A stretch of DNA of 56,979 nt, counting the filler, from Dugesia japonica (taxonomy: Eukaryota): assembly GCA_001938525.1 (NCBI GenBank). It is 5 parts of 5 records of this genome, joined end to end, with 100 filler letters (N's around TTAATTAATTAA, not from the genome) between each part and the next. Parts side by side here need not be neighbours in the genome. Positions count along the whole stretch, not along the records: positions 41,409 to 56,979 come from MQRL01595302.1; 4 more parts are not named here. One strand, 5' to 3'. Under the pieces are notes generated by a model. That model did no database searches. It saw nothing but the letters and a program-made list of their open reading frames with translations, and had not been told where the DNA came from. Positions within the stretch are counted from its first letter, which is position 1, and the number at the start of each line of letters is the position of its first letter. Both the position numbers and the translations under genes were made by a program. Below, one piece after another: positions 6,607 through 56,979 of this stretch.

Positions 6607-7439
6607 CTACAATATGAAATAGTGTAATGTTTACTATAATTTTTTATTAACATAAATCACCACTGAGATTTATGAATAATTATAATATTATTAGATAGGA
6701 GCAATGTTAATTAAAAATTTTAGAATTAAAAAAAATATTTTCATACAAATAATATCCGTGAAATAATTTCTTTAAGAAACTTGGAATCCATTAGGATTTT
6801 CAAATCCCAAAGGTTATGTAAGAGATTTTACAAATATCTGTATCAGACTATTTTTCGTGTTTGCAGTGCTATTTAAACAGTGTTGTTCAAGTTCTTGGAT
6901 CATGCGAAGATTTTAAAAGGGACATTTATAACTGTAAATGGATTTCTACTGAGAAAACAGATGATTCAATATTTGTTGAAGGCTAGTTATAATTTTNNNN
7001 NNNNNNNNNNNNNNNNNNNNNNNNNNNNNNNNNNNNNNNNNNNNNNNNNNNNNNNNNNNNNNNNNNNNNNNNNNNNNNNNNNNNNNNNNNNNNNNNNNNN
7101 NNNNNNNNNNNNNNNNNNNNNNNNNNNNNNNNNNNNNAGGTAAAGGTTATCATAATACTTTTTTGATAATTTTTATTAGTCATACAATATCAGTAACAAA
7201 ATTTTGATAAAACACAATTTTTTATATTTTCATTACTATATTTCCCATTAATTGGCAATGCATTTTTAGTGCAATAAAAATAAATTTCACAAACACTTAC
7301 AAACATTATATTATCACTAGATTGATGCGTCAGCACTGGATCATCTCCNCTGCCGACAAAATAATCTAGCAATTTGAGTAATCCAGAAATATAGGATTTT
7401 GATTGTTCGTTAGGTATACGTAAAAATCTTTTTCGAATT

Positions 7440-7830
7440 CGGATTGGAATGGTCAAATTTTTTCACGGGAAGGTCAAAAAATTGAATTTTTGATTCCAAA
7501 TATTTTGGTCAGATTTTATCATACGATTTCAAATTTAGTATTGTTGAACTCAGAATTAAAAACTGACCATTTTTTGTATATACTTTGTGTATATACATAT
7601 TTTTAGTTTCCAAGATAAAAGTATCTCAGCACTAAATCAGTTGACCTTGATCTATGAGTTGTTCGGTCAAAAATTATTGTATGGTCATGAAAATGATAGA
7701 ATTCAATTCAGAATAAAATTTTAAACATTTTGCATATGTTTTGCTGTAGATATATGCTTAGTTCAAAAGATAGAAAATTCCCGTTTACCATGTTCCACCT
7801 TGGATAGAAAATTATTTTTCTGGAAATAGT
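7440..7830 (+). repeat. Dispersed non-coding repeat family (probable non-autonomous DNA transposon), copy 1
   Basis: gtattgttgaactcagaattaaa, atatgcttagttcaaa-gat and ccatgt..ggata shared with 25780-26380 (+) and, inverted, 47150-47460. Confidence 0.65.
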
Positions 7831-16300: not shown

Positions 16301-17059
16301 ATTTTTATTTTAAGCTGTTTATTTATTTAAGTTTTAATTAAGGTTTGGAATATTATTTATTCAGTAAATAGAAAATTTTTATAGTTTTTTAATATTGTAA
16401 TTTTCATTTTTTGAAATAATGTTTCAATACAACCAAAGTGTCAATCGTATCATCATACCTAAAAGTATTCTGAAATTCCACTCCACCAATTAGATCTAAA
16501 AAAAATTAAACTTTAAAAAAATATTTATACGTTTCAAATAACTAATTTCTTTTCAATTATATTTTAGAGAGCCAATCATATCGCGGCAAATTATTATCAG
16601 GTTGATATTTATTTTCTAAATTTACTTATTAAACTTTATTTAGTGTATTAATATTATTGTGAGTATGTTTTGAAAAGCGAGTTGAAATTTTTGTGCTTTG
16701 GTTTTGAAATCATTTTCTTAAAATCTTTTTTTAAAATTGAAAATCAGAAATTAATTATTAATGTTAAATTAATGATTATTTTATTTGAATTTTCAAAATT
16801 ATATTAAATGAAAATTTAATCTAAAATTTTAAATTTATTGAAAAAGGATTGACAATTAAAGCATAGAGTTTTAATTTCTTTGAATAAACAAATAGTGATG
16901 GATATAGTTTTGTTTTGAATAAATACTTTATGGAAACGAGTTTTGACATTAATTACGCAATGAGTACTTCAAACTCATCTTTCATGGTAGCAGCAGTAAA
17001 CACCGATGCGACTAAAGAGAGATTGCTGCCAAAAATATTTTGGAGAGGCGATGATCTAA

Positions 17060-18377
17060 AGAAGTGGTTTATTATTATTATGAAAATATTCATTTGCCAG
17101 CGTCTGCTGAACCTAACAGATATATGCATTATGAAGAATTTACTGGTCCAGATTGTATTATCAGTTTTTTATCAGCGTTAGAGCTTATCGCGTAAACCAA
17201 AGTTTCACTTTGGTATGAGAATGCAAGAGTTCCATTGCCCCCGCAATCATATCAACAATGGAGGAATTTTAAAAATGCATCAGAATGTTACTTATGCCAA
17301 AAATCATCAGAACAATATGTGAGAGATCATTGTCCTGTTACCGGACAATTTCTTGGAGCTGCGTGCAATAAATGTAATTGGTCCAAACAGATCCACAGCA
17401 TGTTGCCAGTCTTTTTTCACAATCTAAAATGATATAGCTTGCATCATACACTTAAACATGCCATCAACAAATTTACCACTTGGAATCTCAATGCTATTCG
17501 TCAGACTTAGAAAAATTCTCAACATTGTCAGCATTTATGAAATCAGATTATCAAAAAACAGTGTCAATTAAATTTTTGGATTCACATCAGTTCCTATCAG
17601 CTTCACTGAAGACATTGGAAAGACTGTTTAAAATCTATTAAATTTTATGAATTTGAGACTGTGTAACAATGAAAAGAAACTTGTTACATATGCAAGTAAG
17701 CCATAATTCAAAGATTCAAACAAAATAGCCGGTAATTTGGTTGCAGTTTTATTAAATAAGGATTTTGTAACATTAGATAAACTATCTTATATTGGACAAG
17801 AGGTTCTGGATCTATCCAAGTTCAGAATGTATAAGTTACAATATGAATTAGAGTCATTTAGAAAAACACTTAATTGTGAAATTAACATCGTCGCTGGAGA
17901 CACAGACAGTTTCTATCTCAAATGTAAGAATATTAATCAGAGACGGCAGCTTCTTTCAGCAATGATTCAAGACAAGATTTTAGACAGTTCTAATTTTCAG
18001 AAAGAAGATCTTCTTTATTCAACGCAGCCATTGGTTAGTTCAAGGATGAAAATAAAGGTCTGGCTAATTTTAAATAATGTATATTTCTTCGTCCAAAGTC
18101 ATAATCACTTCAAACAGATGATAAAACAATGATGAAGAGTAAAGGGATATATCTCAAGCAAACCATTATTAATCAAGACTATATAGACGCATATGACAAG
18201 GACGAAGAAAAACGAGCACCTCAAAGCAGAATTAGAACAGTGAACCATCAATTATTTACCATTCAAACAAGAAAGAAAGCATTGTATCCGTTTGACGACA
18301 AAAGGAATTGGACTTTTCAAAATAGCAGTGTGGCATATGGGATTACTCGTTGTAAATATTTTTTGAAAAATAAATAA
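17060..18377 (+). pseudogene. Polinton/Maverick protein-primed DNA polymerase B with endonuclease VII domain; disrupted and internally deleted
   Basis: CYLC..VRDHCPVTGQFLGAACNKCN (EndoVII), VFFHNL, FLDSHQFLSASL, YIGQEVLDLSK.RMY, AGDTDSF, KSKGI, KKAL.PFDDKR. Confidence 0.9.
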
Positions 18378-18759: not shown

Positions 18760-19400
18760 AGTAGGTGGAAGTGAGTGCACCGGGCCAGGATGTTTACATT
18801 ATCCCAGGTGTGAACTTTCACGTCCTAATGTAAACTATGAAATTGACACCTTAGGTGTGAACTTTCACACCTTAATTAAACAATAGATATTGACACCCGA
18901 GGTGTGAATTTCATTCATTATTTTTTTTATTAAAAATTAAATGCGTTGCGCATTGAGCATCAAAAAATTCAAATTAATTTTTTTTGTTTTAATTAACATG
19001 AAAATTTCCATACATTATTACTTTTGTATTAAAAATTAAAAGTATGATGCATTGAGCTTTATAAAATACATTATTCTNNTTAATATTATTATTAACGTTA
19101 TTTCAAATATGTTTATAGGTGTTAATTGTCACATCTGTAGCATCAATTTTCACATCTAATTGTAAACAATGTTTTTTTATCGACGTGTAAATTTCCACAC
19201 ATTATTATTTTTATTAAAATGTTTTTTTATGGGTGTGAATTTTCCCACTTTTGTCATGAACTTTCACACCTTAATCATTTGTATTCATGTATGAATATTT
19301 AAAAACATATCATTGTTGTTATTTAAGGTGTGAACTTTCATACATTATTATTAACTTTGAATTTTCAAACTTTTGGCATGAACTTTCACACACCAACTTT
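18760..19400 (+). repeat. Terminal-like motif plus array of palindromic GGTGTGAA-CT-TTCACACC units
   Basis: AGTAGGTGGAAGTGAGTGCACC at 18760; full or degenerate palindrome copies at about 18807, 18854, 18901, 19186, 19232, 19257, 19327, 19379. Confidence 0.75.
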
Positions 19401-19598: not shown

Positions 19599-19991
19599 TT
19601 ACGGTATACATAATTTTACATGTTCATTTAAGTTATAATTGACAATTCGAAGACTCGGAAAAANNNNCTTGAGAGTTTTGATTTTCTTTCCATTCACGTG
19701 ATCATTTACATAAAACAATGCATTATTAGAAATTGCTTGCAAGTCATTGAGTATTCGAATTGGATCAAATTTACAATCTCCGTCAATCCACTTGAGATGA
19801 TGACGCCAGAGCCGTAAGTACTCATTAGTTGTTTGAGCAGATTTTGATAAATTACCCATTGATTCCGTCATGGCAAACATGTAATAAAACGGATGAAGAA
19901 TATTATCCACATCCATTATACATAATTCTTTAATTAAATAGTCGGCATTATTATCCTGAAAGACTTCATGATCAATAAAAAACACAGACAT
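19599..19991 (-). CDS. Polinton-associated small DEDD-exonuclease-like ORF
   Basis: N-terminal IDHEVF...YLIKELCI (DxE) pattern, H.LKW.DG; head-to-tail with the adenain ORF. Confidence 0.5.
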   Translation of the reverse strand: MSVFFIDHEVFQDNNADYLIKELCIMDVDNILHPFYYMFAMTESMGNLSKSAQTTNEYLRLWRHHLKWIDGDCKFDPIRILNDLQAISNNALFYVNDHVNGKKIKTLKXXFPSLRIVNYNLNEHVKLCIP

Positions 19992-20017
19992 TTAAAATTT
20001 TATTGATAATCACATTA

Positions 20018-20326
20018 TCATTGTTTATACTGACTTTTGAGCCATTCAATACAATACTGCTCACATAGAAATGCCAATGGATTCTGATACATGATTTGAT
20101 TGTATTCGACACGTTGTTGCATACGCTCTAATTTTGTTACCAGCAATGGTTGATAAAACATACCCATTGGATCAAATACATGAATAATATTTGGTTTGAC
20201 ATGAATAGCAATCCAATGCTCACCATCCAAATTCGAGGTATGTGTATACATAGTATCCGTTTTGTAAAAGGTCCGGTAATCGTTCGAGTGGATACACTCC
20301 TTTAAATCTCCTGCTGTCCAAATCAC
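20018..20326 (-). CDS. Adenain-like (adenoviral-type) cysteine protease of a Polinton/Maverick; 5' degenerate
   Basis: GEHWIA (His), VFDPMG (Asp), YQ....LCEQYC (Gln/Cys). Confidence 0.8.
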   Translation of the reverse strand: MIWTAGDLKECIHSNDYRTFYKTDTMYTHTSNLDGEHWIAIHVKPNIIHVFDPMGMFYQPLLVTKLERMQQRVEYNQIMYQNPLAFLCEQYCIEWLKSQYKQ

Positions 20327-20397
20327 GTTTCAATATAGTTTCAATCTGAAAAGTACTATTAATCAATAAAATTATCTTTATAAAAACAATACATACT

Positions 20398-20497
20398 NNN
20401 NNNNNNNNNNNNNNNNNNNNNNNNNNNNNNNNNNNNNNNNNTTAATTAATTAANNNNNNNNNNNNNNNNNNNNNNNNNNNNNNNNNNNNNNNNNNNN
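20398..20497. other. Artificial 100-bp contig linker
   Basis: 44 N + TTAATTAATTAA + 44 N. Confidence 0.95.
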
Positions 20498-20874
20498 TCT
20501 TTACTTCTTAATATATTTCTTTTGTTAATATTATTTTCTTTTAGATAATTATCGAACTCTGAATCATTATTCAATAGTTCTCTATTTATTTGTCTTCTAA
20601 CATTTAATAAATGTTCTTTTCCTTTTAAATGATTTTTATAACTTCTTTTTTCTTGAAACCCCTTTTCACAAATTTCACATTTAAATAATGAATTTATACA
20701 AAACTTTTCATGTGTTATTAATCCAGATTTACATTTAAAGACTTTGTTACATTTTGTAAATTTAAGTTCTTTTACTTCTTTCTTTTTTATTATTCCACAG
20801 TACTTTTGATGAGTAGTTAATCCATTTTGTTTTTTAACTTTATTACATTTCTCACAAATAATTGCTGAAGACAT
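20498..20874 (-). CDS. Intronless multi zinc-finger (C2H2/C2HC) ORF, truncated by linker
   Basis: CEKCNK..GLTTHQKYC, KCNKVFKCKSGLITHEKFC, CEICEKGFQEKRSYKNHLKGKEH. Confidence 0.7.
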
Positions 20875-21149
20875 TTTATTTAAGAAAAATTTAGTTTAAT
20901 GGGTTTTTTTAATTAATTGAGGCTACAGCTATAAGTTTTTTATTTCTATTTTAAGTTTAAGATTTTTATTTAAATTTCAATCCATAACTAGAGTAATGAT
21001 AGAACGGGGGCTTATGTTTTTAGACTATGGCTTTTAATATTTTTTTATTTTAATACACAACGTCGTAAAAAGGTGGTCTAATTTAGGTGTCAGGTCAAGC
21101 CTCTGTCTGTTGAAGGTGCCCCCGTTCCATCATTACTTATAATATATAC

Positions 21150-25700: not shown

Positions 25701-25779
25701 TATATTTGATTCAAGTCTAAAATCGTGGTGTTATGGATCTTATAAGTAGAAAAATATGAGCCATAGGAACAGTCCCCCT

Positions 25780-26380
25780 TTCCCCCGCCGTCGACTGTTT
25801 TTGACAATTTGACTATTTTAGTGTTATTGACATATAGAATTTTGATTGGAGGTTACGAATACATGATAATATTTTTCTATTTCAGGTTGAAATGTTCGAA
25901 TTTTAGCTCGGAAACATCGAACATCAATAATTTGTTTTTTAATTTTTTCGGTCAAATTTTATTGTATGGTTTTAAATTTGTTCTTTTTCATCGTAGAATT
26001 AAAAAATGAACATTTTCTGTATAGAGTTTGCTAGATTAATNCTCGCTTCTCTGGGAAAAGTTATGAGCGCNCGNGAACAGTTGACCTTAATTTTAAAATT
26101 TCTCAACCAAAACTTATTGGATCGCTTTGTAAATAGTACTATTCGATTTAGAATAAAATTTTGAAAATATTTTGTATAGAATTTGATGTAAGAATATGCT
26201 TAGTTCAAAGGATTAAAAATTCTCAGGCGCCATGTCGCACCGAGGATAAAAATTTATTTTTTCAAGAAATACTTATGATAATAAAACACATTTGGTATTG
26301 TTGAACTCAGAATTAAACATTGAACATATTTCACATGTGGTTTGCTATATAATCTTTTTAGATATTAAGAAAAACCTATG
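25780..26380 (+). repeat. Dispersed non-coding repeat family, copy 2
   Basis: Blocks shared with 7440-7830 and 47150-47460. Confidence 0.65.
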
Positions 26381-27992
26381 AGCTTTTGGATACTTAATGT
26401 ATTTTTAAGTATTTTATAGCTTTTTTTAGAGTTTTCCAAAGTTTTATGAGTTTTATAGGGTTGTATTTGATTCATTGTTTTCATTAGATATGATAAGTTT
26501 AACTGCTTTTTAAGAGTTTCTTAAAGTAAAATGACAAAGGAATAAAAACTTGATTAACTCATACAACAATTCCTTACTTATTAACCTAATATACACATTC
26601 ATCATACATCAAAGTTTCATAATTATACAGCACTTTCTTTAAAGTATAATCAAATTTCATATAAATAGACTGATGTTCATTAAAACATACTAGATTTCAT
26701 TATTTCACAACAGATCGCTTAGGTCAAACAGTAATACACTAGATTCAATACATCATAGACTAATCATAGAAGAAGGAACAGTGGCGAAGATTCCATGGAG
26801 GTGTGAATATACAAAGAACAAGAGGATACAAACAGAAGGATCATGGTTCATTTTCTTAAAAAAATATTTTAAACGAAATGTTTTCTGTTTTTATTATCTG
26901 TTTTGTGTTTTATTGATATATTTAAAGACATTTTATTATAAAATCATAAAATATGGAAGCTATGGAAGTAGATGACACTGTAAATGATTGGTTGGAAAAC
27001 ATCTATGATCAAAAAGGTTTTAATATTATTTAATTTCATTGTTGTCAATTTTTCATTAGAAATAATAAGAAACATTTTAGAGGAGCAATTCATAAATGAT
27101 TTATTTATATACTGGACTACTAAAATTTACTGGGAAACGATATATGAAAGGATAGGATTTGAAATTGATGTCGTAATCAAAAGATATCTTTCATATCCTT
27201 TTTGATATGTTTATTCATGTAATCAGTGTAAAAAATCTATTTTGAAGCATGTTATTGAAAAATACCTTGAAGATATAAATCGTATACTTGAATAAAGCTT
27301 GATAAAATGTCTAGCGTTTCTATTAAAATGGGAAGTTCTACCAAACCCGGCTTATTTTTCCAGACATAGCCCCGTCAGATTTTCACTTATTTCGTTCTAT
27401 GCAGCACAGTCATTTGGGTACACGATTCAGGAATATTGAAGAGGCAAGAAAGGTTAACAGCAACTTCATTCAATCCAAGAGCAAAGACTTCTTTCATAAG
27501 GGTATTCATCTTTTACCTGAAAGATGGGTAAAAGTTGTGAATAACGATGCAAAATATTTTGATTGAATGTACTGTGTTATTTGTAATAATATTGTTGGGG
27601 CGAAACAACCAGTCAAGGAGGAAATAAGATAATCACCACCAACAAGTACCCTAAAGAGAAAAGGGAATAATACGGTATTACCACAAAAGAAAACAAATAC
27701 CAAAACGAAATCAGGTTGTAAATTAATGATGAAAGGAACAATCTAAGAAAAGCTGATAAATGCGTACTCAGATAATCAAATAAAGGAAATTACTGAATTG
27801 TTATTTAAAAGCGGGAAAATGATTAAACAGAATAATTAATTATAAAGAAAAATATAAATTAATTAAAAGCTAAAATAAATTAAAATTAAATCAAAATTCA
27901 TTTTGGGCGAATATCTATGCACCAGAAGATCGGAGGAGCTCAGCACAAGAAAATTTCCGAAGAAATTAGGGTCTACAAATTCCATCATGATC

Positions 27993-29989: not shown

Positions 29990-30210
29990 GAAAATTCAAA
30001 ATGGCGGCTATGTTGAGTTTAAAAAATTCTCAGACGTATGATTTTCAGTGTAGGTGTGTTGTATCTAAGTTGCATAGCTATGGCATTTATTAAAAATCAA
30101 AATGGCGGCTATGTTTGGTTTTAAAAATTCAAAATGGCGACTATGTGTAGGTTTAAAAAATCAAAATGGCGGCTATGTTTAGTTTTTAAAAATCAAAATG
30201 GTGGCCAGCT
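29990..30210 (+). promoter_or_regulatory. Cluster of YY1-like TCAAAATGGCGGC repeats
   Basis: Five copies at about 29996, 30097, 30128, 30161, 30193; function inferred only. Confidence 0.55.
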
Positions 30211-30593
30211 TGAGTTTTAAAAATTCTCAGAAGTGTGATTTTCAGTGTATGTGTGTTGCATCTGAGTTGCACCTGAATTGCATACCTATTGCATTTATTA
30301 AAATAAAAATTCCCAGGCACGTGATTTTCAGTGTATTTATGTTGCATTTAATAAAATATCTATCAAAAACAGCAAAGATAGGGGTCTTTGTGCTATTTTC
30401 ACGATAAAATATATCTATCAAAAAAACCTTTGATATTTACATGATAAAAATATATCAAAAAAGTTCAAAGAGAGGAGTCTTTGTGATATTTTCATGATAT
30501 AATATTCAAATNNNNNNNTTTTTTTACAATATGATAAAAACAGATTTTTTTTCATTAAAACCTTAACTAGGTAATTTTCCATAAAACGAGCAG

Positions 30594-30775: not shown

Positions 30776-31149
30776 CATATTGGTTGAGAACATTTTGAGA
30801 ACAAATTGATTAAAACATAGGACGTTTTTTATAAAAATCAGAAATTCATGGTACCTTCCCATATATAACTAATAAACCTATATAAAAAAANNNNNNNNNN
30901 NNNNNNNNNNNNNNNNNNNNNNNNNNNNNNNNNNNNNNNNNNNNNNNNNNNNNNNNNNNNNNNNNNNNNNNNNNNNNNNNNNNNNNNNNNNNNNNNNNNN
31001 NNNNNNNNNNNNNNNNNNNNNNNNNNNNNNNNNNNAAACATGTATTGTACAAGACGCAAGGATGACGCATGCATGTTAAATATAAACAAAATAAATATTA
31101 AAATTCTTACTAAAAAAAAAGAAATGATAAAAAAACGTTTATTTAAATA

Positions 31150-31560
31150 AATACACCATGTTGATCGAATGCGGACACCCTGTCTTTTATTATCCTTGTT
31201 CATTAGTCGATTTAGATTTATTACTGCGGTGTAATGAAATCTGTTGTTTTTTTCCAGTAATGACAGATATATTTTCTCTCCATCTATCACTTTTGATCGG
31301 CGTATTATATCCAAATTTGGATGTTTTATTACTACGTCATCTTCTTCATCCTCCACTGATTCTTGATTCCATGATAGAACATTTATGGATAGTCCTGGAT
31401 TATTCTTCTCAAACTTCGGTATATCAATTAGTTTCATTGGCATATCCTCATCATCATAAGTAAGCTCCGATATGTATTTTTTATATAATGTTACATGGTT
31501 TCTATGCTTTCCTCTAACCTGATCTGTTTTTAGTGATAGCAAGAATACTGTAAATAAAAC
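31150..31560 (-). pseudogene. Second Polinton pPolB fragment (N-terminal region)
   Basis: MPMKLIDIPKFEKNNPGLSINV...IYLSLLEKNNRFHYTAVINLNRLM matches the P..I.KFE..N..SINV..LLL..HY..I.NL.RL pattern of Polinton/adintovirus pPolB. Confidence 0.75.
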
Positions 31561-31569
31561 AGTAATTAT

Positions 31570-31669
31570 NNNNNNNNNNNNNNNNNNNNNNNNNNNNNNN
31601 NNNNNNNNNNNNNTTAATTAATTAANNNNNNNNNNNNNNNNNNNNNNNNNNNNNNNNNNNNNNNNNNNN
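31570..31669. other. Artificial 100-bp contig linker
   Basis: 44 N + TTAATTAATTAA + 44 N. Confidence 0.95.
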
Positions 31670-41308: not shown

Positions 41309-41408
41309 NNNNNNNNNNNNNNNNNNNNNNNNNNNNNNNNNNNNNNNNNNNNTTAATTAATTAANNNNNNNNNNNNNNNNNNNNNNNNNNNNNNNNNNNN
41401 NNNNNNNN
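41309..41408. other. Artificial 100-bp contig linker
   Basis: 44 N + TTAATTAATTAA + 44 N. Confidence 0.95.
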
Positions 41409-41659
41409 GGAAATGACTGATTCACAGTCTAATGGGGAAATAAATGATAAAGAAATGACTGATGAAGACATATTGATTGAAAAAAAAATTATAATAATAT
41501 TTATATAAAAAAAATAATAAAAAAAAATACTAAAACCAAAAAAAAAACAAAAAATATTAAAACAATAAAAAAAAATATTAAAATAAAAAAAAATATTAAA
41601 ACAAAAAAAACGATTAAATCAAAAAAAATCTTTATTAAAACAAAATTTTAAAAGTTATG

Positions 41660-42083
41660 TATTTCCGTGAGAGGAGGAGGGGGTATGTCTTTGTTCTGAC
41701 ATAGAAAAATTTTCGAGAAAAAAATATGACTCATCACAAAAATTCAAAATGGCTGGAGGGTGGGGGTAAGGGAAGGGGTAGGAAGGGAGATAGAGGTATC
41801 TAAATTTCATAGAAAATTTTTTGAAAAAAATATGAGTCATCAAAAAAAAAGCGGGCAAAAAAAGTGGGCGGGGCAAAAGAAAAGTGGGCAGTGAAAAAGA
41901 TAAAAAGTGGGCGGAGAAAAAGATAAAAAGGGGCGTGGCCAAAAAAAGTGGGCGGAGAAAAGATAAAAAGTCGGCGGAGTCTAAAAAGAAGCGGAGTCCA
42001 AAAAAGGTGCGGGCAAAAAAATCGGGGGGGTGGGGTACCCCCCTTCGAGGGGCCCCAGTTTGGTGCGCTCATATCTACCTACT
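41660..42083 (-). mobile_element. Putative element end: terminal motif, G/C-runs, AAAAAGTGGGCGG array, TGA(C/G)TCA and CAAAATGG motifs
   Basis: Reverse complement AGTAGGTAGATATGAGCGCACC at 42062-42083; GGGCGG-like units 41850-42015; ATGACTCAT about 41726, ATGAGTCAT about 41832. Confidence 0.6.
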
Positions 42084-42135
42084 TACTGTTAATCACAGTG
42101 GATTTCAGGATGGAACCACTCAGGCCCATCAAATC

Positions 42136-42730
42136 CTAAATAATCGAAACTTCTTCTTCTTCCGCTTGCGACTCCGTGCTGTCTTTTTCGGTTGCACCAC
42201 TCTCTACAGGCACTCCAGTCATTTGGCTCTCTTCAATGATGTCTTCCAAATCACTCTTCTCGAGGGCTGTCATCAGTCGATCTCGTTGCGAAGTGAGTAA
42301 CTTATTATTCGCCTCGAGTATGGTAACCCGCAAATTAGCTACCTCGAGATCCACCCTCAAATCATTTGTCTCTTCTTTCCGAGCTATTTTCTCATCACGG
42401 ATCATTTCCTGGACCTCCTCCCATTCAATATAGTAGTAACCGTTAGTGTCGATGTACGGCCATATATAGCGTGGTCTTTTCAAATTCCTTCTGTTTTTTG
42501 TCATCTAGTGAATTATAATCATATTTATTAATTCACACTGCATACGATAATGAATAAAATAAAATTAAATTAGATTTTTGAATTTCCTATGATTTACACG
42601 ATTTCTTCGGCCTACGGCTTATCATCATTTCCAACGTCCCATAACGCGAACCAGAGAAGATACTCGCTGGTAACATGTATCTTTCCTCGTTCCCGCTATC
42701 GTCAAACTCTGTTGGTCGTTCAATACTCAT
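42136..42730 (-). CDS. Two-exon orphan coiled-coil gene, family B copy 1 (frame across intron unresolved)
   Basis: Exon about 42598-42730, GT..AG intron 42505-42597, ORF 42136-42504 with GYYYIEWEEVQEM, heptad region and acidic tail; DNA similarity to 49069-49132. Confidence 0.55.
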
Positions 42731-44239
42731 TATAAAACAGTTGCACTTCAATTTATTTTGTAAGAAAAATGGATATTAATAATTAAAACACATCTGTTGA
42801 TTAAAAGAAAATGATCCCATAAGATAAATAATAATAAATAAATCAATAAAAAAAATAGATAATGTTTTTAATTATTTATTAAATATTCATACGACTTTTA
42901 ACAAGACAAAAAATAATTTTTCCACTCAAAATATAACAAACCAAACAATAATCCCATCGGGGAATATATTTTTACCCGTTGAAATCTGACAAAACTTAAT
43001 TTCGCCCTACAATTCTCGGCTTCACCTTCACTCCTCCATGCGTGAACGCCACCCAGCGACTTCCTCTGAATTCCCGTGATTTCTCAATTCATAATTTTTA
43101 AGCCACATTACAAAATTTGTCTCGTCCTTAAATTTTCATCTCATTTTTTATCAAAAAGATTGTGGTGGTGGCACTCGGACATGATGATTTTATTTCATTT
43201 AACAAAAAATTGATATTAATGTAAAATAATAAAATAAATAAATAAACAAATATTTACTCTGTGGTAGTTGTCGATAAAATGTTCTGGAANNNNNNNNNNN
43301 NNNNNNNNNNNNNNNNNNNNNNNNNNNNNNNNNNNNNNNNNNNNCATAAAATGCTTTTAAGTAAAAATTTTTAAATTCTTCTCCTCATTTTTTCCAAGTA
43401 ATCTGGTTTTATTCATTTTATCGACACCACGACTGGAGAGCTTTCACTACTCGTCAAATCGTTGATTCGCATTTCAGAACCTCATCCGCTCATTGGTTCC
43501 TGGAGTCAGATTTTCTCGAATCTTGGAAATGATCGCACCACAACTTTGCTTGCCTGCATGCGCGATTGATTGACAACGAATTTGGAAAACCAAATTCGTA
43601 TCGTTGGGTGGATGCTCTAGTTGATACTGTCTGGTTTTCAAACTTATTCATCGCTTTGAAAAACCAGACATAAACGTGACTGGACCAGATTAAGTTAACT
43701 TCTAAATAATATTANNNNNNNNNNNNNNNNNNNNNNNNNNNNNNNNNNNNNNNNNNNNNNNNNNNNNNNNNNNNNNNNNNNNNNNNNNNNNNNNNNNNNN
43801 NNNNNNNTATTATTTGTCTTATTATTTCCTACTCGTACATCCAAATGTCATCGTTGTATCTCCAAATTTGGGTCCTCTACGCCCAATTTTCATTTTTTTC
43901 CCGTTTCAATAATAATTGTATAATAATTATAATAATAATAATTACATAATAATAATGATACTATAAGGCAAAATATCTGGTCCAGCACCTATATTTTACT
44001 TAATTTTCCGCTTGTTCTCTCTTAATTTTCGTATTATTTGAGGATGCTTTGTTAGCTTTTTTCCACTAAAATTATATGTTCTAGCCCAACATAATTATTT
44101 TAATTATTATCATTTTAATTGCTACTATTATTTTTGTTATTATTTTAATTATCATTTATTTTCATTATTTATTATAATTAATTATTAATACTTTTATTAT
44201 TCAATAGTAAATACATGCCATTGATTAAATCTTATTTTA

Positions 44240-44376
44240 TTGAGTAAATTTTATTCTATTGAGTAAATTATCCTTAATAATTTATATTCTATCGAGTAAA
44301 TTATATTCTATTGAGTAAATTATATTCTATTGAGTAAATTCTATACTATTGGGAAAATTATATTCTAATGAGTAAG
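44240..44376. repeat. About 20-bp tandem repeat (TTGAGTAAATTATATTCTA) in the leader of a Gypsy gag
   Basis: 6-7 visible copies. Confidence 0.85.
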
Positions 44377-44451
44377 TTAGAAATTGATATGACATTGAAG
44401 TTTAGTTTATATATTAAAGTGTAAATAATAAATATATTTTCAAAATTCAAG

Positions 44452-46990
44452 ATGTCTGTAATTACTGATTTAACTGGTGAACACTGCCATCTCAACTCAA
44501 TGACAAGAAATCAAACAGCAGAACTGTTATTTCCAAGAATAACAAAATTCTCAGGAAATTGTTATGAAGATCCAATCGCGTGGTTGAAAGAAATTGAAAC
44601 GTTCTCAGTCACAAATAACTTTGACCTCATGTTAACTTTTGATTTCTTATTAGATAGCGACGTTAGAATTTATGGCTAGCTTGCAAAGCTCGAGCCAAAA
44701 TGAACGACAAATCAACATGAAATTTGTTCAAATTAAAATTCGTCAAAGATAAATCTTTTTTACGAATGATTGAAGATTTCAGTATAATGATTCAAAAAAC
44801 TGATGAAAGATATAAAAAATTTGAATTACGAGTTACAAAAGCTTTAAAGGAAATATTCAAATACGGATTATCAATGGAAAAAATTGTAAAGAAAGTAATT
44901 CAGAAAAGAGTAAAATCTCAAGATTTAAAAAAAGCCTTTGCCCTGAAATTAGATTTAAATGCTGATGATATACAACAGTTAGCTGAAAATTATGACAAAA
45001 ATGATGAAATTGATGAAAAGTCATCAGTCAATAAATTATCATATTCTGAAGTGGCAGCAGCTGATTAATTCTCAATGTTGAAGAGAATAGATACAGGAAA
45101 AATTAACGGTCGGAATTACATGCGAATTCCGGATAAGCCAGCTCCTGTTGTTAATGATACAGAAAGAAATTCTCCAATTCAATACCAAAAGCAAATCCAG
45201 AGAAACTCTCCAACGACATTCATGAAGTTCATTGTCAGAAAGATGTATAATCAATCCACAGGTTTTCCACATCCAAAAGAGGAGATTTTGAGACCCGATT
45301 CAATGAAATATTTCCGTAATAATTGTCTTCTAAAAGATTGTTGTTTAATTTGCGGAAAATTGGGACATCATTTTAGAAGTTGTAGACTGCTTGGGAAATA
45401 TCACCACAGAAACAATGTTAGATGTATTGTGGATGAAACTAATTAAAAAGATGCAATTAATATAATTTGCGTTGAATCAGATGAAGAAGAGCATGGTGTG
45501 AACTATTTAAACGAGAAGGACTTCAATGTTCCAATTTTAGCTGTGGAGTCAAGACAGTAAGAACAAATTAAAATCAAAATTTAAACATAAAGATGAGATG
45601 TATGTGAAGAGTGATGGAAGTATTTGGAGTGTAGTTAAAGTGAATGATAGAGGTGTGGAGATGTTTTGGGACACAGGAGCATGGATTTCAATAATGCATA
45701 TGAATGCTTGGAAAAGATGTAATTTGTTTCAGAAAATTCAGAGATAAAATTGAGTGAAGCATTTTTGAAGGAAGTTGTTAAATGCTTAGGCGTCGGAAAA
45801 GTGAAAATTAATTACTATAATATGAATGAAACTGTCAATTTGGTGATAGTACAGAGAATAAGCCCAGAGTTCATTGGTGGAATAGACATGTGCAAAGTTT
45901 TTAATATTCAATTAAAGATGATTGGATTAATCAAATCAGATAATTTAGTGTGTGATGTTTCTGATGATAATCGATTAAGAGTCACTATGAACATTTTAAA
46001 ACCAAGAGATGACACCTTGAAAAAATTGTTAACGTTTTTCGCCTCGATATTCATGGCGCATACGTTTGATCTGGGTAAAACACATATAGTTAAACATCCT
46101 ATCCAAACAACGGGAAATCTTGTCTTACAATGGCCGAGACGACAACCGATGCACCTAGAAAGCAAGATTGATGAAATGATTAAAACAATTATAAAAAACG
46201 GCATTATAAAAGAATGCAGTATCCCGTGGAATTCACTTATGGTGATTGTTAACAAAAATAATGGAGCTATTCGTATGTGTCAGAATTTTAGATTATTGAA
46301 TGCAGCAACTGATAAGTTTTTGTTTCCTATGCCAGATTCTCAAATTTTATTCGATCATCTTAGTAAGTGTACCATATTCTCAACACTAGATATAGGCCCA
46401 GCGTATTATCAAGTCGAACTAGAAAAGAAGGATAAATTAAAACCGCTTTTTTTACAAAGAAAGGTCAGTACTGAATAATTGCATTCCATTCGGCCTATCA
46501 ATCGCTCCAGCTACGTTTCACAAATTAATGCATACAATTTTGCCAGATATTTTATTTAAAGGCGTTGTAGTTTATATCGATGATATTATAATCTTTGAAA
46601 AAATTTGGATGGAACATGATCGCATTCTATTAGAAGTATTTCAAAGAATTAAAACATCTGGTCTTAAAGTGAATCCAGCCAAATGTAAACTTTATCAAGA
46701 GGAGCTCGTGGTTTTGTGTCATACAATAAAAATTTGGATTAAAACCTTATTCAGAGCAAATCAAGGAGATTGTTAATGCTGGAATTCCAAATTGTACTAA
46801 ACAAGTGCGATCTTTTTCTTGGAATGGGAAATTATTACAGGAAAGAATTTTTAGCAACTTGCTACATCTCTATATGCTGCTAAATGAGGTCAAAAGCACG
46901 AGATATGTGAACAAAAAAATGCGAGACGAGTTTCTGGAAAATCAAGGAAGATCTTTGTAATTCTCGAGTATTGGGGTATCCTAATTTTTT
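44452..46990 (+). mobile_element. Ty3/Gypsy gag-PR-RT remnant, 3' truncated
   Basis: KFSGN..EDPIAWLKEIE (gag), CLICGKLGHHFRSC (CCHC), WDTGA (PR, about 45667), IFSTLDI..AYYQV, PFGL..APATF, VYIDDII. Confidence 0.9.
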
Positions 46991-47149
46991 TTATCCTAAT
47001 AATTTTTCAGTGGTAGTTTATAGAGCCATTATAAATTGCTTTCAATTCTGAGTTAAACTTTATAAAATTATTTTAAAAATTAATATAATCATTATTATAA
47101 TTAATTATATAATTATATATTATTTCTTGAAAGAAGCATTTTTGTATTG

Positions 47150-47460
47150 TAAATCCTACATGAAATATGTTCAGTTTTTTATTCTGACCTCAAAAATATT
47201 AAATTTGTTTGCTTATCACAAGTATTTCCGCAGTAAATCGTTTCTTTTATCAAAGGTGGATCATGTTACCTGGCAATTTTTTATCTTTTAAACCAAGCAT
47301 ATTTTTACAACAAATTTTTTACAAAATATGGTTGTAATTTTATTCTAAATCAAATGCTATCATTTTTAGAGCGAAACAATAAGGTTTGGCCGAGAAATTT
47401 AAACAAGTCAAAGTGTTCCCATGCACTATTACCTTTATCTTGGAAACTAAAAATATTTAT
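47150..47460 (-). repeat. Dispersed non-coding repeat family, copy 3 (inverted)
   Basis: tttatcttggaaactaaaaatat is the reverse complement of about 7597-7619; other shared blocks. Confidence 0.6.
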
Positions 47461-48059
47461 GTTAGCTCTTTTTAAAACTTTGCAAATATTTTAAAATTTA
47501 ATGCAGTTATTAGTTTAAATTTTTTAATGTAAATAATTAGTAAAAAATTTTAATAATTAAAATTTATTGCTTTATTTTTTAAATTACTTGAAATTAGAAG
47601 TTTTAGATTTAAAAAATATATTTTTAATAAATATAATAAATTTGTTTAAATTTATTATTTATTCAAAAATAAAAATTGGAAAAGGCAAGTTTTGAAAGAA
47701 GCGTTCAAAAGAAAGAAGAATTTCAAAGAAGAATTAATTGTAGTTGAAATAAAGTATTGAATTAAAAGTCTTGTTTTAGTGGATTTAAATGAAGAAGAAA
47801 ATAAATAAAACAAAAATTTATATAGTAATTTCTAAACAGAAAATGTTTATTTTTTAATTCTATGACAATCAATATCAAATTCAAAACCATACGATAAAAG
47901 TTAACTAAAAAATTTAAAAAACAAATTTTCGATATTCAACCTTCCCGAGCCAAAATTCGACCGTTACAACCTGAATTCGACAACCTTTTCATGTATTTGT
48001 AACGTCCAATCAAAATGCTACATGTCAAAAGCAGCAAAATATCAAAACCAAAAACAGAG

Positions 48060-48095
48060 ATGGGGGCTTTTCCGGTGCGCTACTATCCATCTTCT
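48060..48095 (-). mobile_element. Degenerate copy of terminal motif
   Basis: Reverse complement AGAAGATGGATAGTAGCGCACCGGAAAAGCCCCCA. Confidence 0.45.
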
Positions 48096-48154
48096 TCAAA
48101 TATAACGCGCTTGCTTATTATATTCGAAATTTAACACAGAGATCTATATAAAGA

Positions 48155-48715
48155 AGCTGATTATAGAGATTTGCTATCAGAAATGCAATAATTTTGAGAA
48201 GATAAATTTGTCGAAAAATGCTGAAATCAATTATAAATATTTTCTGTCAGAAATGCAATAATTTTGAGAGAATAATTTGGTCGAAAAATGCTGAAGTCAA
48301 TTATAGAGATTTGATATAAAAAATGCAATAATTTTGAGAAGATAAATTTTTTGAAAAATGCTGAAATAAATTATAGAGATTTGCTATCAGAAATGCAATA
48401 ATTTGGAGAAAATAATTTTGTTGAAAAATGCTGAAATCTATTATTGAGATTTGTTATCGGAAATGCAATAATTTTGAGAAAATAAATTGGTTGAAAAATG
48501 CTGAAATAAATTATAGAGAATTGCTATCAGGAATGCAATAATTTTGAGAAAAGAATAAGGTCAGAAAACGTTGAAATCAATTATGGAAAATGGAGATCGA
48601 GAATGCAAGAGTTTTGAGAAAATAATTTAGCCGAAAAATGTTGACATCAATTATAAAAATGACTACTGAGAATGGAATAGCTATAAAAAAATTATTTTGC
48701 AAAAATACCTAAAAC
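48155..48715. repeat. 70-bp tandem repeat, about 8 copies
   Basis: AAATGCAATA recurs at 48181, 48251, 48321, 48391, 48461, then diverges at 48531, 48601, about 48670. Confidence 0.95.
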
Positions 48716-49009
48716 ATGTGTAGTAAATCGATCGAGAGCTTGGTGTTCATGGGTACCGCGAGTGCAAGATAGTTTTTTCTTGTTGGAAGGAATGATTTTG
48801 TAAATGAGTGCAGTTATGTCTTAAAATCTTTTATTGTTTTGTAATGAAAATATCAACTTTATATATACGAAATTTGATTTTTTTATTTTTCTTAGATAAT
48901 ACTTTTCCTATAATGTATACGATTAATAATATTTTGTTTATTTAATAATATGTTCATTAGATCATTTAAATAATGTGACTAATTTAAAAGATATTCATCT
49001 AACAATATA

Positions 49010-49655
49010 GAGAATCTTTTGAGAGCTCCGCAAACATGTGAACGGGAAAAGATGGTAGTCTGAATTATCATCTTCTCCGGTTCGCATGTCAGGTGCAAAA
49101 ACAAGAACTGATAGGCCACAGGCCGAAGGAACNNNNNGTTAAATAAATTCTGAGCTATTTTGATTGAATTACATTTAATATGAATATTAAAAATCGATAA
49201 TTTATATTTTTAACAGAATTATAACCGAGTATTTCGAGCCGCATATCCCGTTGGTACTGACCAATGACGGTGACGAAGGGACCTTTTGTATTCCATGGAG
49301 GAACACCGTGGAGTTACTCGACAAACATAAGAAACTTTACGAGACAGATAAACAGTCAGTGAAGGCAGGACAGCGGGAACTAGTGAAACAGAATCTGGAA
49401 TTGAAGCGCCAGTTAGAAACGGCCCGTGTCGAAAATGAAAAACTCAAACTCCAGTTGCCACAATGGTGATTAGAATTTCAAGCAACAGCTCGGGAGGTTG
49501 CCGTGGCCACGCGACAGCTGATGGAACATCGACGCGTTGTGGAAAAAATTGAAGAGAGAGTGTTGTTGGACGACACTGAGGTCGCGACCAAGGTTCGAGA
49601 CCCAGGGATCGTCAAAGCAGAGTCGATAAGTCAATAAATGTATTAATGTGTTCAA
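49010..49655 (+). pseudogene. Two-exon orphan coiled-coil gene, family B copy 2
   Basis: Exon about 49010-49137, acceptor TTTTAACAG at 49216, GTFCIPWRNTVELL plus heptads, AATAAA at 49633. Confidence 0.55.
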
Positions 49656-49925
49656 GAGTCGGGAATGTTTTTAAATTACTAATTGTGATATGTATGTCAA
49701 ATTGTAGTTGCAGTGGCGGTCATAAGTTTAAGCGAGATTAGTTAATCATTATTTTATTGTTCTTTGTAAAAATGCAATTGAGGAGTGAATTTTAATTACG
49801 TTAGTTTTCGCACTATCTTATGTCTTTGGATGGAACTTTCAATTGTAATGGTTGTTTCCCTTTTATTAGTTTTTTACACCTATCTTAATTGAAACTAGTA
49901 TTATTTAATTAGCTCTAAAATTTTA

Positions 49926-50249
49926 GTGAACAAATCGAGCGAGGAGATGATGCCAAAAAGAGAGGTGGTAATATTACAAAAGAAGTGGAAGGACAATAGG
50001 CGTGAGCTGCGCAATGAGATTTTAAGTTTGAAAGGCCAGTTAAACAAAGCCTCATTCAAGTTCTCGCAATTGAATGAAAAAGAGTTGGCTCTCCAACAGG
50101 CCAATCGGCTCATGGCCGATATCATCAAGATCTTTGCGGATCACGAAGCCACAATGTTCCTCACTCTGCAAACATTGTGGTTACATTATCAATCGCCAGA
50201 AGAGTCCACAGATACTGCGAATCAGGCCATAGATCTAGATGCTTGCTAA
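49926..50249 (+). CDS. Small orphan coiled-coil ORF
   Basis: 107-aa ORF with heptad pattern, GC above background, AATAAA at 50275 with 3' context like 49633. Confidence 0.5.
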   Translation: MNKSSEEMMPKREVVILQKKWKDNRRELRNEILSLKGQLNKASFKFSQLNEKELALQQANRLMADIIKIFADHEATMFLTLQTLWLHYQSPEESTDTANQAIDLDAC

Positions 50250-50749
50250 CCATTGACGAAAATGTTGATACTTAAATAAATGTTCATTGATGTTCAACGA
50301 GTTGTTCTGAATTACAATTTTGTTAGATGTGGCAAAATCTTAGGTGATATTCGAAGTAAATCTTCACTGAGCTTATCGAAGATCATTGCTGCCAGGGTTC
50401 ATGTATTCAGTGAGTAAGATGCGATACCATAAAGTCGCGCTGAACCCGCGGAAAGAAAGGGGCATGTCACAGAGGTGACACAAATACTTGTGGTTTTTAG
50501 GTATGCCCCAAGACATGTAAAGGAAATAGTAATTATTAAAAGTGAGATCAGTAAATTTGAAGCTATCATTGTAAAAAATCAAATTCTAAAAACCCAACAT
50601 ATACATAAAATTAAAATAAAACAATATGGAATAAATTAAAATCATACCACAATAAAAAAAGATCCGGTTACAAAAAATTACCAATGGGTTTTTTTTAATC
50701 GAAGAAATGAAGTTTATTTACAATTCATAAAAAAAAATTATAATAAAAT

Positions 50750-55048: not shown

Positions 55049-56506
55049 ATGAAGTTTTCTATTATTTACACTATCAGAAAATTTTTAATTAAAATCGGTT
55101 TAAAACAGCATCCATTGCCTTTGAATCGAAAAATTTTAATTGGCAATTTTGACTCATCAGCAATTAATGCGAATTATTCTCATGACAGTAAATATAAGTA
55201 TCCGAATAATTATATTAAATCTTCTCGATATACAATTGTAAATTTTCTTCCGAAAAATCTTTTTGAACAGTTTCAAAGAATTGCAAATTTCTATTTTTTA
55301 TGCATTGCTTTAATTCAATTGTTCATCGAAACTTCCGTTCCAATATTTTTGAATATATTTCCTTTAATATTTGTGATTTGTGCTACAATGATAAAACAAG
55401 GTTATGAAGATATTCTGCGTCATTTAGCGGATGCGGAAGTCAATAATTTGCTAGTTCAAGTTCTGAGAAATGGAAAACTAATCAAAATCAAATCAAAAGA
55501 CATTGTAATAGGGGATATTGTCTATTGTGAAAAGAATGAAACATTTCCTTGTGATCTTGTATTACTTTCATCAAGTGAATATTCTGGAATTTGCTATGTC
55601 ACCACTGCAAGCTTAGACGGTGAAACTAATCTAAAGGTTTTCTCAGCTTCTCCAAAAACAAAAGCATTTAATGACTGCTCAAAAATCAATCAAGGATTAC
55701 ATTTCGTGATTCAATGCGAGCATCCAACCGAAGATCTTTATCGTTTCGAAGGACAAATTTCTCCAATAAATAATCTTTACGATGTTAGTCCTTTGATTTC
55801 CAATAATCTTTTATTGAGAGGTGCCAGACTACGCAATACGGATTACATTTTTGGTTGCGCTGTTTATACCGGACAAGACACTAAAATGGCCTTGAATTCC
55901 TGTTCGAAAACTGCCAAATTTTCCCAAGTGGAATTGAGATTAAATTTATTTTTAGCTGTTTTTCTATTGGTTCTTTTATTTGCTGGTGTTTTATGTACAA
56001 CATTGAAGTATATGATGGTAAAATCGGTATTTCTAGATTCGTTTTATATTCCATATAGCAGTACAGCTGCTTGGAAAGTCGTTGAAACCTTTCTAACATT
56101 TATTGTTTTGTTTAATTATTTGATTCCCATATCACTTTATGTGACAATTGAGTTACAGAAATTTTTTGGATCAATGTTTTTTGGATGGGACTTGAACATG
56201 TATGATCCGATCAATGATTTATGTGCCAGGTCGAATACTTCTGATTTGAATGAGGAGTTGGGGCAAATTGAATTTCTATTCAGTGATAAAACTGGAACTT
56301 TGACAGAGAATGAAATGCGATTTCGGCAAGCATCAATCGACGGTGTGAAATTTATCGACAATGAAGGAGAATTGCTGGATGCATCAACTCAACAAGCAAT
56401 CGATTTGACGAATTTACCGGATAAAGTTGAACAATTTTTCACAGTTTTATCACTATGTCATACTGTAAGAGTAGAATCAAGAACGAAAAATCAGAAAGAA
56501 TATCAG
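55049..56506 (+). CDS. ATP11: P4-type ATPase phospholipid flippase, ATP11-like (class IF/IG/IH); large coding exon, gene continues
   Basis: FLPKNLFEQFQRIANFYFL, KQGYED, SLDGETNLK, LLLRGARLRNT, IPISLYVTIELQKF.GS.F.GWD, EELGQIEFLFSDKTGTLTENEM, LSLCHTV; donor CAG|GTATTT at 56506/7 just before the expected ASSPDE. Confidence 0.95.
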
Positions 56507-56979
56507 GTATTTTCATGTTTGGTTATTTGAATTTATCTTTATCCTCATTATTTGATGACTCAATTGAATCATTAAATTTTACTTTTCTTTTGTAACTCAG
56601 ATAAAATTAATTTAAATATTGAAAATATTTATACAAAATCACTTTGTTGGTATTTCTGTGAAATAACTTGATAAATGAAATCATTTGAAAATTAACTATT
56701 CAATGTCAAACATGTGATTGAATTTTATATTCAAAAATCTCNNNNNNNNNNNNNNNNNNNNNNNNNNNNNNNNNNNNNNNNNNNNNNNNNNNNNNNNNNN
56801 NNNNNNNNNNNNNNNNNNNNNAAAACATTTTAGAAAGATCATCATCAATAGTGTTGATTAAAATTAAAATAAATATCTATAGTCTTTTGTAATGAAGTAA
56901 TTATTTTACTGACTTTATTTTTCTCGATTGATTACATAACACAAGACATTCTTATATGAAATACTCATCGTATTTTAAT

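Follow-up and report, generated by a model that had tools for sequence, protein, structure and literature searches.

A GC-richer orphan gene with a predicted coiled coil and a predicted hairpin leader beside the end of a separate, very high-copy element in the planarian Dugesia japonica

According to the accessible portions of the reports cited in this paragraph, Mavericks (Polintons) end in an (AGT)2 motif and their genes are intronless in vertebrates (PMC8097293), while nematode Mavericks have a cargo region that is GC-rich and poorly conserved and whose genes, such as wasp proteases and krma kinases, bear introns (10.1101/2022.07.12.499685). Mavericks are expanded in planarians (10.64898/2025.12.11.693146), and in S. 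mediterranea Polintons are piRNA targets that are silenced by SMEDWI-2 (PMC8532177). Other giant elements also have genes of their own: accessory ORFs and tandem repeats occur in Burro-type Gypsy LTR retrotransposons, and coiled-coil ORFs in Terminons (PMC6431247). The gene family analysed here, which we call gene B, is similar to the nematode cargo in being GC-richer, poorly conserved, putatively intron-bearing and near Maverick ends, but differs from it in that its product is a small orphan coiled coil and the gene has a predicted hairpin leader, and its placement inside a Maverick is hypothetical. It also differs from Burro elements and Terminons, since neither an LTR nor a hammerhead match nor a linked reverse transcriptase was found for it. 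The gene B unit is not described in the accessible portions of PMC3014272, PMC11410931, PMC10748475, 10.64898/2026.01.28.702291 and PMC5671611.

The window, that is, the whole stretch of DNA analysed, has 56,979 nucleotides and is composed of five parts of assembly GCA_001938525.1; at 11763, 20398, 31570 and 41309 there are linkers in which a 12-base stop cassette is flanked by 44 N on each side, and the scaffold order across them is uncertain. It is very AT-rich and full of debris, including Gypsy fragments, a mariner fragment and Maverick-like polymerase pieces. The features around the two copies of gene B, and the one clear host gene, are as follows.

42084-42135, minus strand: 3' continuation of the gene B repeat, cut at 42083/42084 (contig depth)
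42136-42504, minus strand: main ORF of gene B copy 1, 122 aa (ORF translation)
42491-42599, minus strand: AT-rich putative intron (splice-site scan; splicing inferred)
42605-42624, minus strand: second common block just before the donor, a small hairpin or a short coding stretch (block match)
42631-42715, minus strand: long predicted RNA hairpin, the conserved part of 'exon 1' (folding)
44220-44379: 19-bp tandem array upstream of copy 1 (repeat scan)
48160-48697, plus strand: 70-bp tandem array upstream of copy 2 (repeat scan)
49025-49096, plus strand: long predicted RNA hairpin of copy 2 (folding)
49217-49640, plus strand: main ORF of gene B copy 2, interrupted by a stop at 49467-49469 (ORF scan, codon bias)
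49950-50249, plus strand: ORF C, an orphan of coiled-coil type that follows copy 2 in tandem (GC3 0.52, same codon bias)
55049-56530, plus strand: ATP11-type flippase, host gene (single open frame of about 490 codons)

Both copies of gene B are real ORFs with coding-like codon bias. The GC contents at codon positions 1/2/3 are 0.51/0.33/0.48 in copy 1, 0.59/0.31/0.52 in copy 2 (which as a whole occupies about 49000-49640) and 0.47/0.30/0.52 in ORF C, and those of the host flippase are 0.38/0.31/0.26. The 3' end of ORF C is similar to that of gene B, with like sequence after a polyadenylation-type hexamer. The flippase is sister to a clade with two named parasitic flatworms (support 99/97 in a tree of 28 rows); several of its closest matches in the flatworm clade are fragments of 407-434 aa. 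Both copies of gene B in the window are broken. In addition to the interrupted frame of copy 2, the stop of copy 1 at 42136-42138 is absent from most other copies, position 42137 carrying another letter in 1064.7 of 1064.7 (X1), 823.2 of 823.2 (X3) and 1645.3 of 1648.4 (X4) units of contig depth. When 42136-42138 is read as X, the frame of copy 1 extends to a stop at 42081, within the adjoining element end, and the insertion at 42083 has likely cut the 3' end of this copy.

Copy number and linkage were assessed on public DNA contigs. In X1 the summed contig depth of gene B over 42103-42543 is 490-1030, with most of the single listed contigs at about 5-10, and contig cover of the gene-side repeat extends almost without a break from 42086 to 43236; this depth, though no true copy number, suggests roughly tens to about a hundred copies. 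The structure model of the copy 1 protein, made from a single sequence (mean pLDDT 72.5, pTM 0.37), predicts a beta-hairpin at residues 13-27, then a long coiled-coil-type helix at residues 28-83 and a disordered acidic tail, in agreement with the coiled coil that the initial annotation had read in exon 2.

No homologue, family or specific fold was found for this protein in the protein, profile and fold libraries searched. There were two homologue candidates for it (as P0001) and one for ORF C, none of them scored; the best score in the Atlas search was 0.88; IMG/VR had no match for the protein, the terminal motif or the hairpin; nothing was above the cut-off in Pfam, NCBIfam and PHROGs; and the fold search of BFVD and PDB gave no match with E up to 0.001. 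Two sets of matches were rejected: the five from phmmer with residues 1-85 against 1.84 billion representatives, all of them repeat or coiled-coil proteins, and the best of the VIA fold search (Z 6.0), which consists of generic coiled-coil helices. Homology to gag, pol, env or tyrosine recombinase was likewise not found in Pfam, NCBIfam, PHROGs, two protein collections and fold libraries, from which planarian repeat proteins may be missing. An 18-residue likeness links the head of gene B to the NUMOD1/I-TevI-like beta-hairpin-helix repeats of three proteins (P0002, P0004 and P0006), but these weakly match NUMOD1-type Pfam models whereas gene B matches none, the E-value is due to many short, repeated matches, and the fit of copy 2 is poor; we keep this likeness as a lead only. 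Gene B is multi-copy by contig depth, GC-richer than the host by codon position and orphan by homologue searches, as was initially proposed, and these three properties make a mobile origin likely. The virus-like nature that was ascribed to such accessory genes at the same time is unproven.

Two element ends with the terminal motif lie near the two copies.

41410-42083, plus strand: end of a separate very high-copy element, reading AGTAGGTAGATA inward from 42083 (contig depth)
47142-48095, plus strand: another such end, variant AGAAG, left of and outside copy 2 (motif comparison)

The end at 41410-42083 carries G-rich and GC-box repeats, and the window has seven related ends in all, at 1907, 18760, 25745, 27993, 37280, 42083 and 48095, six of which read AGTAG inward, one of these AGTAGT, and the seventh AGAAG. 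The motif is a true element terminus, as the initial annotation had it. The terminus at 42083 is sharp in all four contig runs (X1, X3, X4 and X9, the last being contigs of a related organism, B), where the summed contig depth, which is no true copy number, drops from 87,459 to 373, from 149,206 to 436, from 52,907 to 509 and from 397 to 0, respectively; in X1 the drop at 42083/42086 is more than 200-fold. Moreover, 47, 48, 42 and 6 contigs in these runs diverge from the reference past 42083, into letters that are mutually unrelated (agreement 0.42-0.54). The motif-ended element thus has roughly thousands of copies. With its AG/AGT-type motif at a sharp terminus we infer that it is Maverick-type: it resembles Maverick/Polinton elements (accessible portions of PMC8097293 and PMC10748475) in its AGT-type end, its sharp terminus, its subterminal tandem repeats and the pPolB debris nearby, the difference being that no paired TIR or 6-bp duplication was found in the window. 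Among 12 end pairings there was no target-site duplication, the best flank match being 4/6 in an assembly that has gaps. Next to the end at 18760 there is polymerase debris that includes an endonuclease VII domain (PF02945, E 7.6e-6; PF03175, E 0.049); of the Maverick genes for pPolB, integrase, ATPase, protease and capsid, none was observed within the 42083 element itself.

Several further observations concern these ends and their surroundings. The ends at 25745-26352 and 47142-48095 belong to one subfamily and face each other 21 kb apart. The complementarity of their arms (25873-26352 and 47142-47983) is 76-79%, and no target-site duplication matches between them; 7386-7828 is a third piece related to these two, and copy 1 would fall inside the facing ends 25745/48095 if both were one old element. 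Just inside the 42083 element, 41410-41500 is the end of an acidic repeat-like ORF with a summed depth of 117,354 (X1). Maverick-like debris at 16888-18370 (plus) and 19599-20895 (minus) consists of protein-primed polymerase pieces and an endonuclease VII domain, and after the AGTAG end at 18760 there are 47-bp repeats, then a protease-like ORF and a C2H2 zinc-finger ORF. The former ORF (20018-20329) had no profile match in Pfam, NCBIfam and PHROGs, and we presume it to be protease-like from an adenovirus-type protease motif. By eye, a second polymerase-like fragment is present at 30838-31617 (minus). A small AT-rich two-exon-like ORF at 26940-27300 (plus), about 1.2 kb inside the 25745 end, has a stop that overlaps a polyadenylation-type hexamer, and a 32-bp tandem array at 29990-30220 has repeated CAAAATGGCG words, which we take to be YY1-like sites. 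The motif strings were not found in print. In metagenomes the motif occurs at 19 loci, which were set aside as chance: 17 (L001-L005, L007-L009 and L011-L019) are from one unrelated eukaryotic repeat family, in which the same 19-base word is internal, and two are one bacterial locus. Positions 1-750 of L007 encode what, as judged by eye, may be the end of a reverse transcriptase of Penelope type.

Against this background, the explanation that we favour, with about even confidence, is that gene B belongs to the accessory (cargo) genes of a large planarian mobile element and has decayed; from precedent and neighbourhood this element would most likely be a Maverick/Polinton. The GC content of gene B is above that of core genes and host, as in Maverick cargo (GC3 0.48-0.52, against 0.31-0.37 in the three Maverick-like ORFs of the window and 0.26 in the host gene). 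The same figures also count against a Maverick carrier, in that gene B exceeds the Maverick-like genes of the window. Maverick cargo would be inside the element, between TIR and core genes, and at the 42083 end gene B is not; the likeness to Mavericks is that of the motif-ended element, and gene B lies outside it. No intact carrier of gene B was seen. The difference in GC3 from the Maverick-like genes is one reason to consider another giant carrier, namely a Burro-type Gypsy LTR retrotransposon, a Terminon-like Penelope element or a Helitron, which we regard as unlikely. Gypsy gag/pol debris does lie at 44450-47000, between both copies of gene B, and the accessory ORFs, tandem repeats and coiled-coil ORFs of Burro elements and Terminons offer a precedent; however, the copies stand in inverted orientation on either side of the Gypsy and have diverged too far to be its LTRs, Rfam gives neither a hammerhead nor any other family at gathering level, and gene B has no Pfam family above the cut-off. 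We take the block before the donor to resemble a hammerhead core by eye, but as a hammerhead ribozyme of a Penelope/Terminon pLTR it was rejected, having no Rfam match and lacking two of three stems in the folds.

Of the exon 1 match proposed initially, the DNA blocks could be located, at 42646-42661 and 42605-42624 (minus) in copy 1 and at 49070-49085 and 49109-49128 (plus) in copy 2; the score of the linear match was reached by none of 2000 shuffles in the pairwise test, but by 5 of 100 in the window-wide test, which is marginal. For exon 2, the pattern G-x-aromatic-x-I-x-W-x4-E is present as judged by eye, while the likeness behind it is at chance level (score reached by 951 of 5000 protein and 994 of 2000 DNA shuffles) and BLASTP gives no alignment of the two proteins. 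The relatedness is convincing because of the common hairpin structure. In each copy the order is hairpin, second common block, AT-rich spacer and acceptor-like site, the site being of the same phase in both, and the hairpin precedes the codon-biased ORF at equal spacing.

The two predicted hairpins (-33.2 kcal/mol in copy 1 and -35.4 kcal/mol in copy 2) are the two most stable long hairpins among those listed in a scan of the whole window. On the gene strand they have z values of -4.52 and -6.91, whereas the opposite strand gives -1.08 and -6.08. The stem that both have in common keeps all of its 14 pairs, two of them with compensatory changes on both sides and one with a change on one side; with two sequences the covariation is not significant (133 of 500 shuffles). 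Within the window a two-sequence covariance model matches only both copies and their opposite strands. No Rfam family was found for the hairpin at gathering level, and over 41400-50500 Rfam gave three chance-level matches (E 0.44 or worse). The arm sequences were not found in the full-text literature searched, in eight supplements of a planarian small-RNA paper (PMC5671611) or in three of four supplements of a flatworm miRNA paper (PMC3840308), and an entry in Repbase or miRBase is possible. A second strong predicted hairpin is present upstream of copy 1 at 43613-43687 (minus, z -3.99), with GC-richer exon-like islands around it at 42960-43190, 43400-43690 and 43810-43910.

From folding, then, the conserved feature of the two copies appears to be a long predicted hairpin and not clearly a coding exon, and a hairpin leader is the better reading of 'exon 1'. 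The ATG of copy 1 at 42642 is at the 3' foot of the hairpin and runs into stops, and the ATG of copy 2 (49086-49088) is fully paired in the predicted stem and opens a short frame up to an N gap. One-base indels of high-depth contigs at 42662, 42664, 42673, 42677 and 42678 fall in the stem top and argue against a reading frame through the hairpin, with the proviso that a self-complementary stretch may place one contig in both directions and so yield paired indels. The frame that is open in copy 2 across the second block is broken in copy 1 at 42605-42624. On the other hand, a 43-codon frame of 'exon 1' is open in copy 1 and an in-phase join is possible via the weak sites 42599 to 42490, so copy 1 could have a coding exon 1. 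The candidate donors of copy 1 are 42599 and 42597 and its candidate first exon bases 42537, 42504 and 42490; the donor region of copy 2, upstream of the main ORF, is masked by 5 N (49133-49137). In two of the six raw RNA runs listed, X19 and X20, of which about 6% and 25% were read, no RNA joint crosses the putative intron, exon 2 has a depth of 0 and exon 1 at most about 2 per strand; the indexed runs listed as containing the sequence include none of RNA. For the spliced gene of the initial annotation there are in-phase candidate sites in both copies. A DNA joint from 42132 to 42604, seen in one contig each of X1 and X3, was not used, its short side having only 21 letters.

Two further readings start from the hairpin. 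Distinctly unlikely in our view is an undescribed large virus-like planarian element family, in which spliced orphan coiled-coil genes would each have a conserved hairpin as an RNA-based control or counter-silencing module, processed into small RNA or gating translation, so that the hairpin would outlast the divergence of the protein. Highly doubtful, too, is that the hairpin would itself be the functional unit, a multi-copy pre-miRNA-like or other small-RNA gene with the ORF as a passenger. Its contig depth is far above that of its flanks (up to 12,288, at 42673, compared with about 765 on exon 2, in X1), the predicted fold is better on the gene strand, and the long imperfect stem-loop has a form and length that would suit pre-miRNAs; but a self-complementary stretch may count twice in depth, neither Rfam nor the literature and miRNA-paper supplements searched yielded a match, and in both copies a codon-biased ORF comes after the hairpin at equal spacing.

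The initial annotation regarded gene and terminal motif as one small mobile cassette, since both copies are close to a motif copy, although their relative orientations are opposite. The distances hold: the stop of copy 1 is 53 bp from the motif end and the hairpin of copy 2 is 930 bp from the 48095 end, both within 1 kb, with relative orientations opposite. About 25% of the window, however, is within 1 kb of one of the seven ends, so that both copies would be near one with a chance of about 6%. Relative to the 42083 end, gene B is on the flank side, outside the motif-ended element, and the motif faces outward as an end whose flanks are unrelated in dozens of contigs. Among the 32 of 1388 contig pieces listed, none bridges the junction of gene and motif, although bridging copies are possible beyond these pieces; the gene-side contigs that reach the junction, one in X1, three in X3 and two in X4 (pieces 4, 5 and 11), show other letters; and organism B (X9) has the motif end but no depth on gene B. 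The depth drop, the non-bridging contigs and the end without gene in organism B speak against a cassette, which we consider very improbable, and in the contig data the gene is largely unlinked to the motif. Most likely, gene B adjoins the motif only because a separate Maverick-like end was inserted there, as a nested insertion, and closeness to an end of the 42083 type is no evidence of cargo. Least probable of all is that gene B is a young multigene family of the host which segmental duplication has spread. The intron-like spacers, the polyadenylation-type 3' ends and the tandem ORF C could be cited for this, but the GC3 of gene B is about twice that of the sole host gene measured, there are no exon 2 reads in two RNA runs, and both window copies are broken amid transposon debris.

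If gene B is cargo of a large element, we assume that an intact copy would be transcribed from within its carrier element and that splicing would join a short first exon to the main one. With the start codon lying at its foot, the hairpin would mask it and thereby hold down translation, or the RNA would enter small-RNA processing. The protein, with its beta-hairpin head and acidic tail, would form a small coiled-coil oligomer, which, judging from the predicted structure, may act on host or element proteins as an adaptor or a decoy, and the family would normally be silenced, like planarian Polintons by SMEDWI-2/piRNA. For now the results are of use mainly for planarian repeat annotation, where they separate nested transposon debris from an unannotated orphan family and define a precise, very abundant Maverick-type end that is common to two organisms. 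If the hairpin turns out to serve a virus-like element as a processed or regulatory RNA, it would offer a testable case of RNA-level control in Maverick cargo, and such control would sit in an animal whose Polintons are known piRNA targets.
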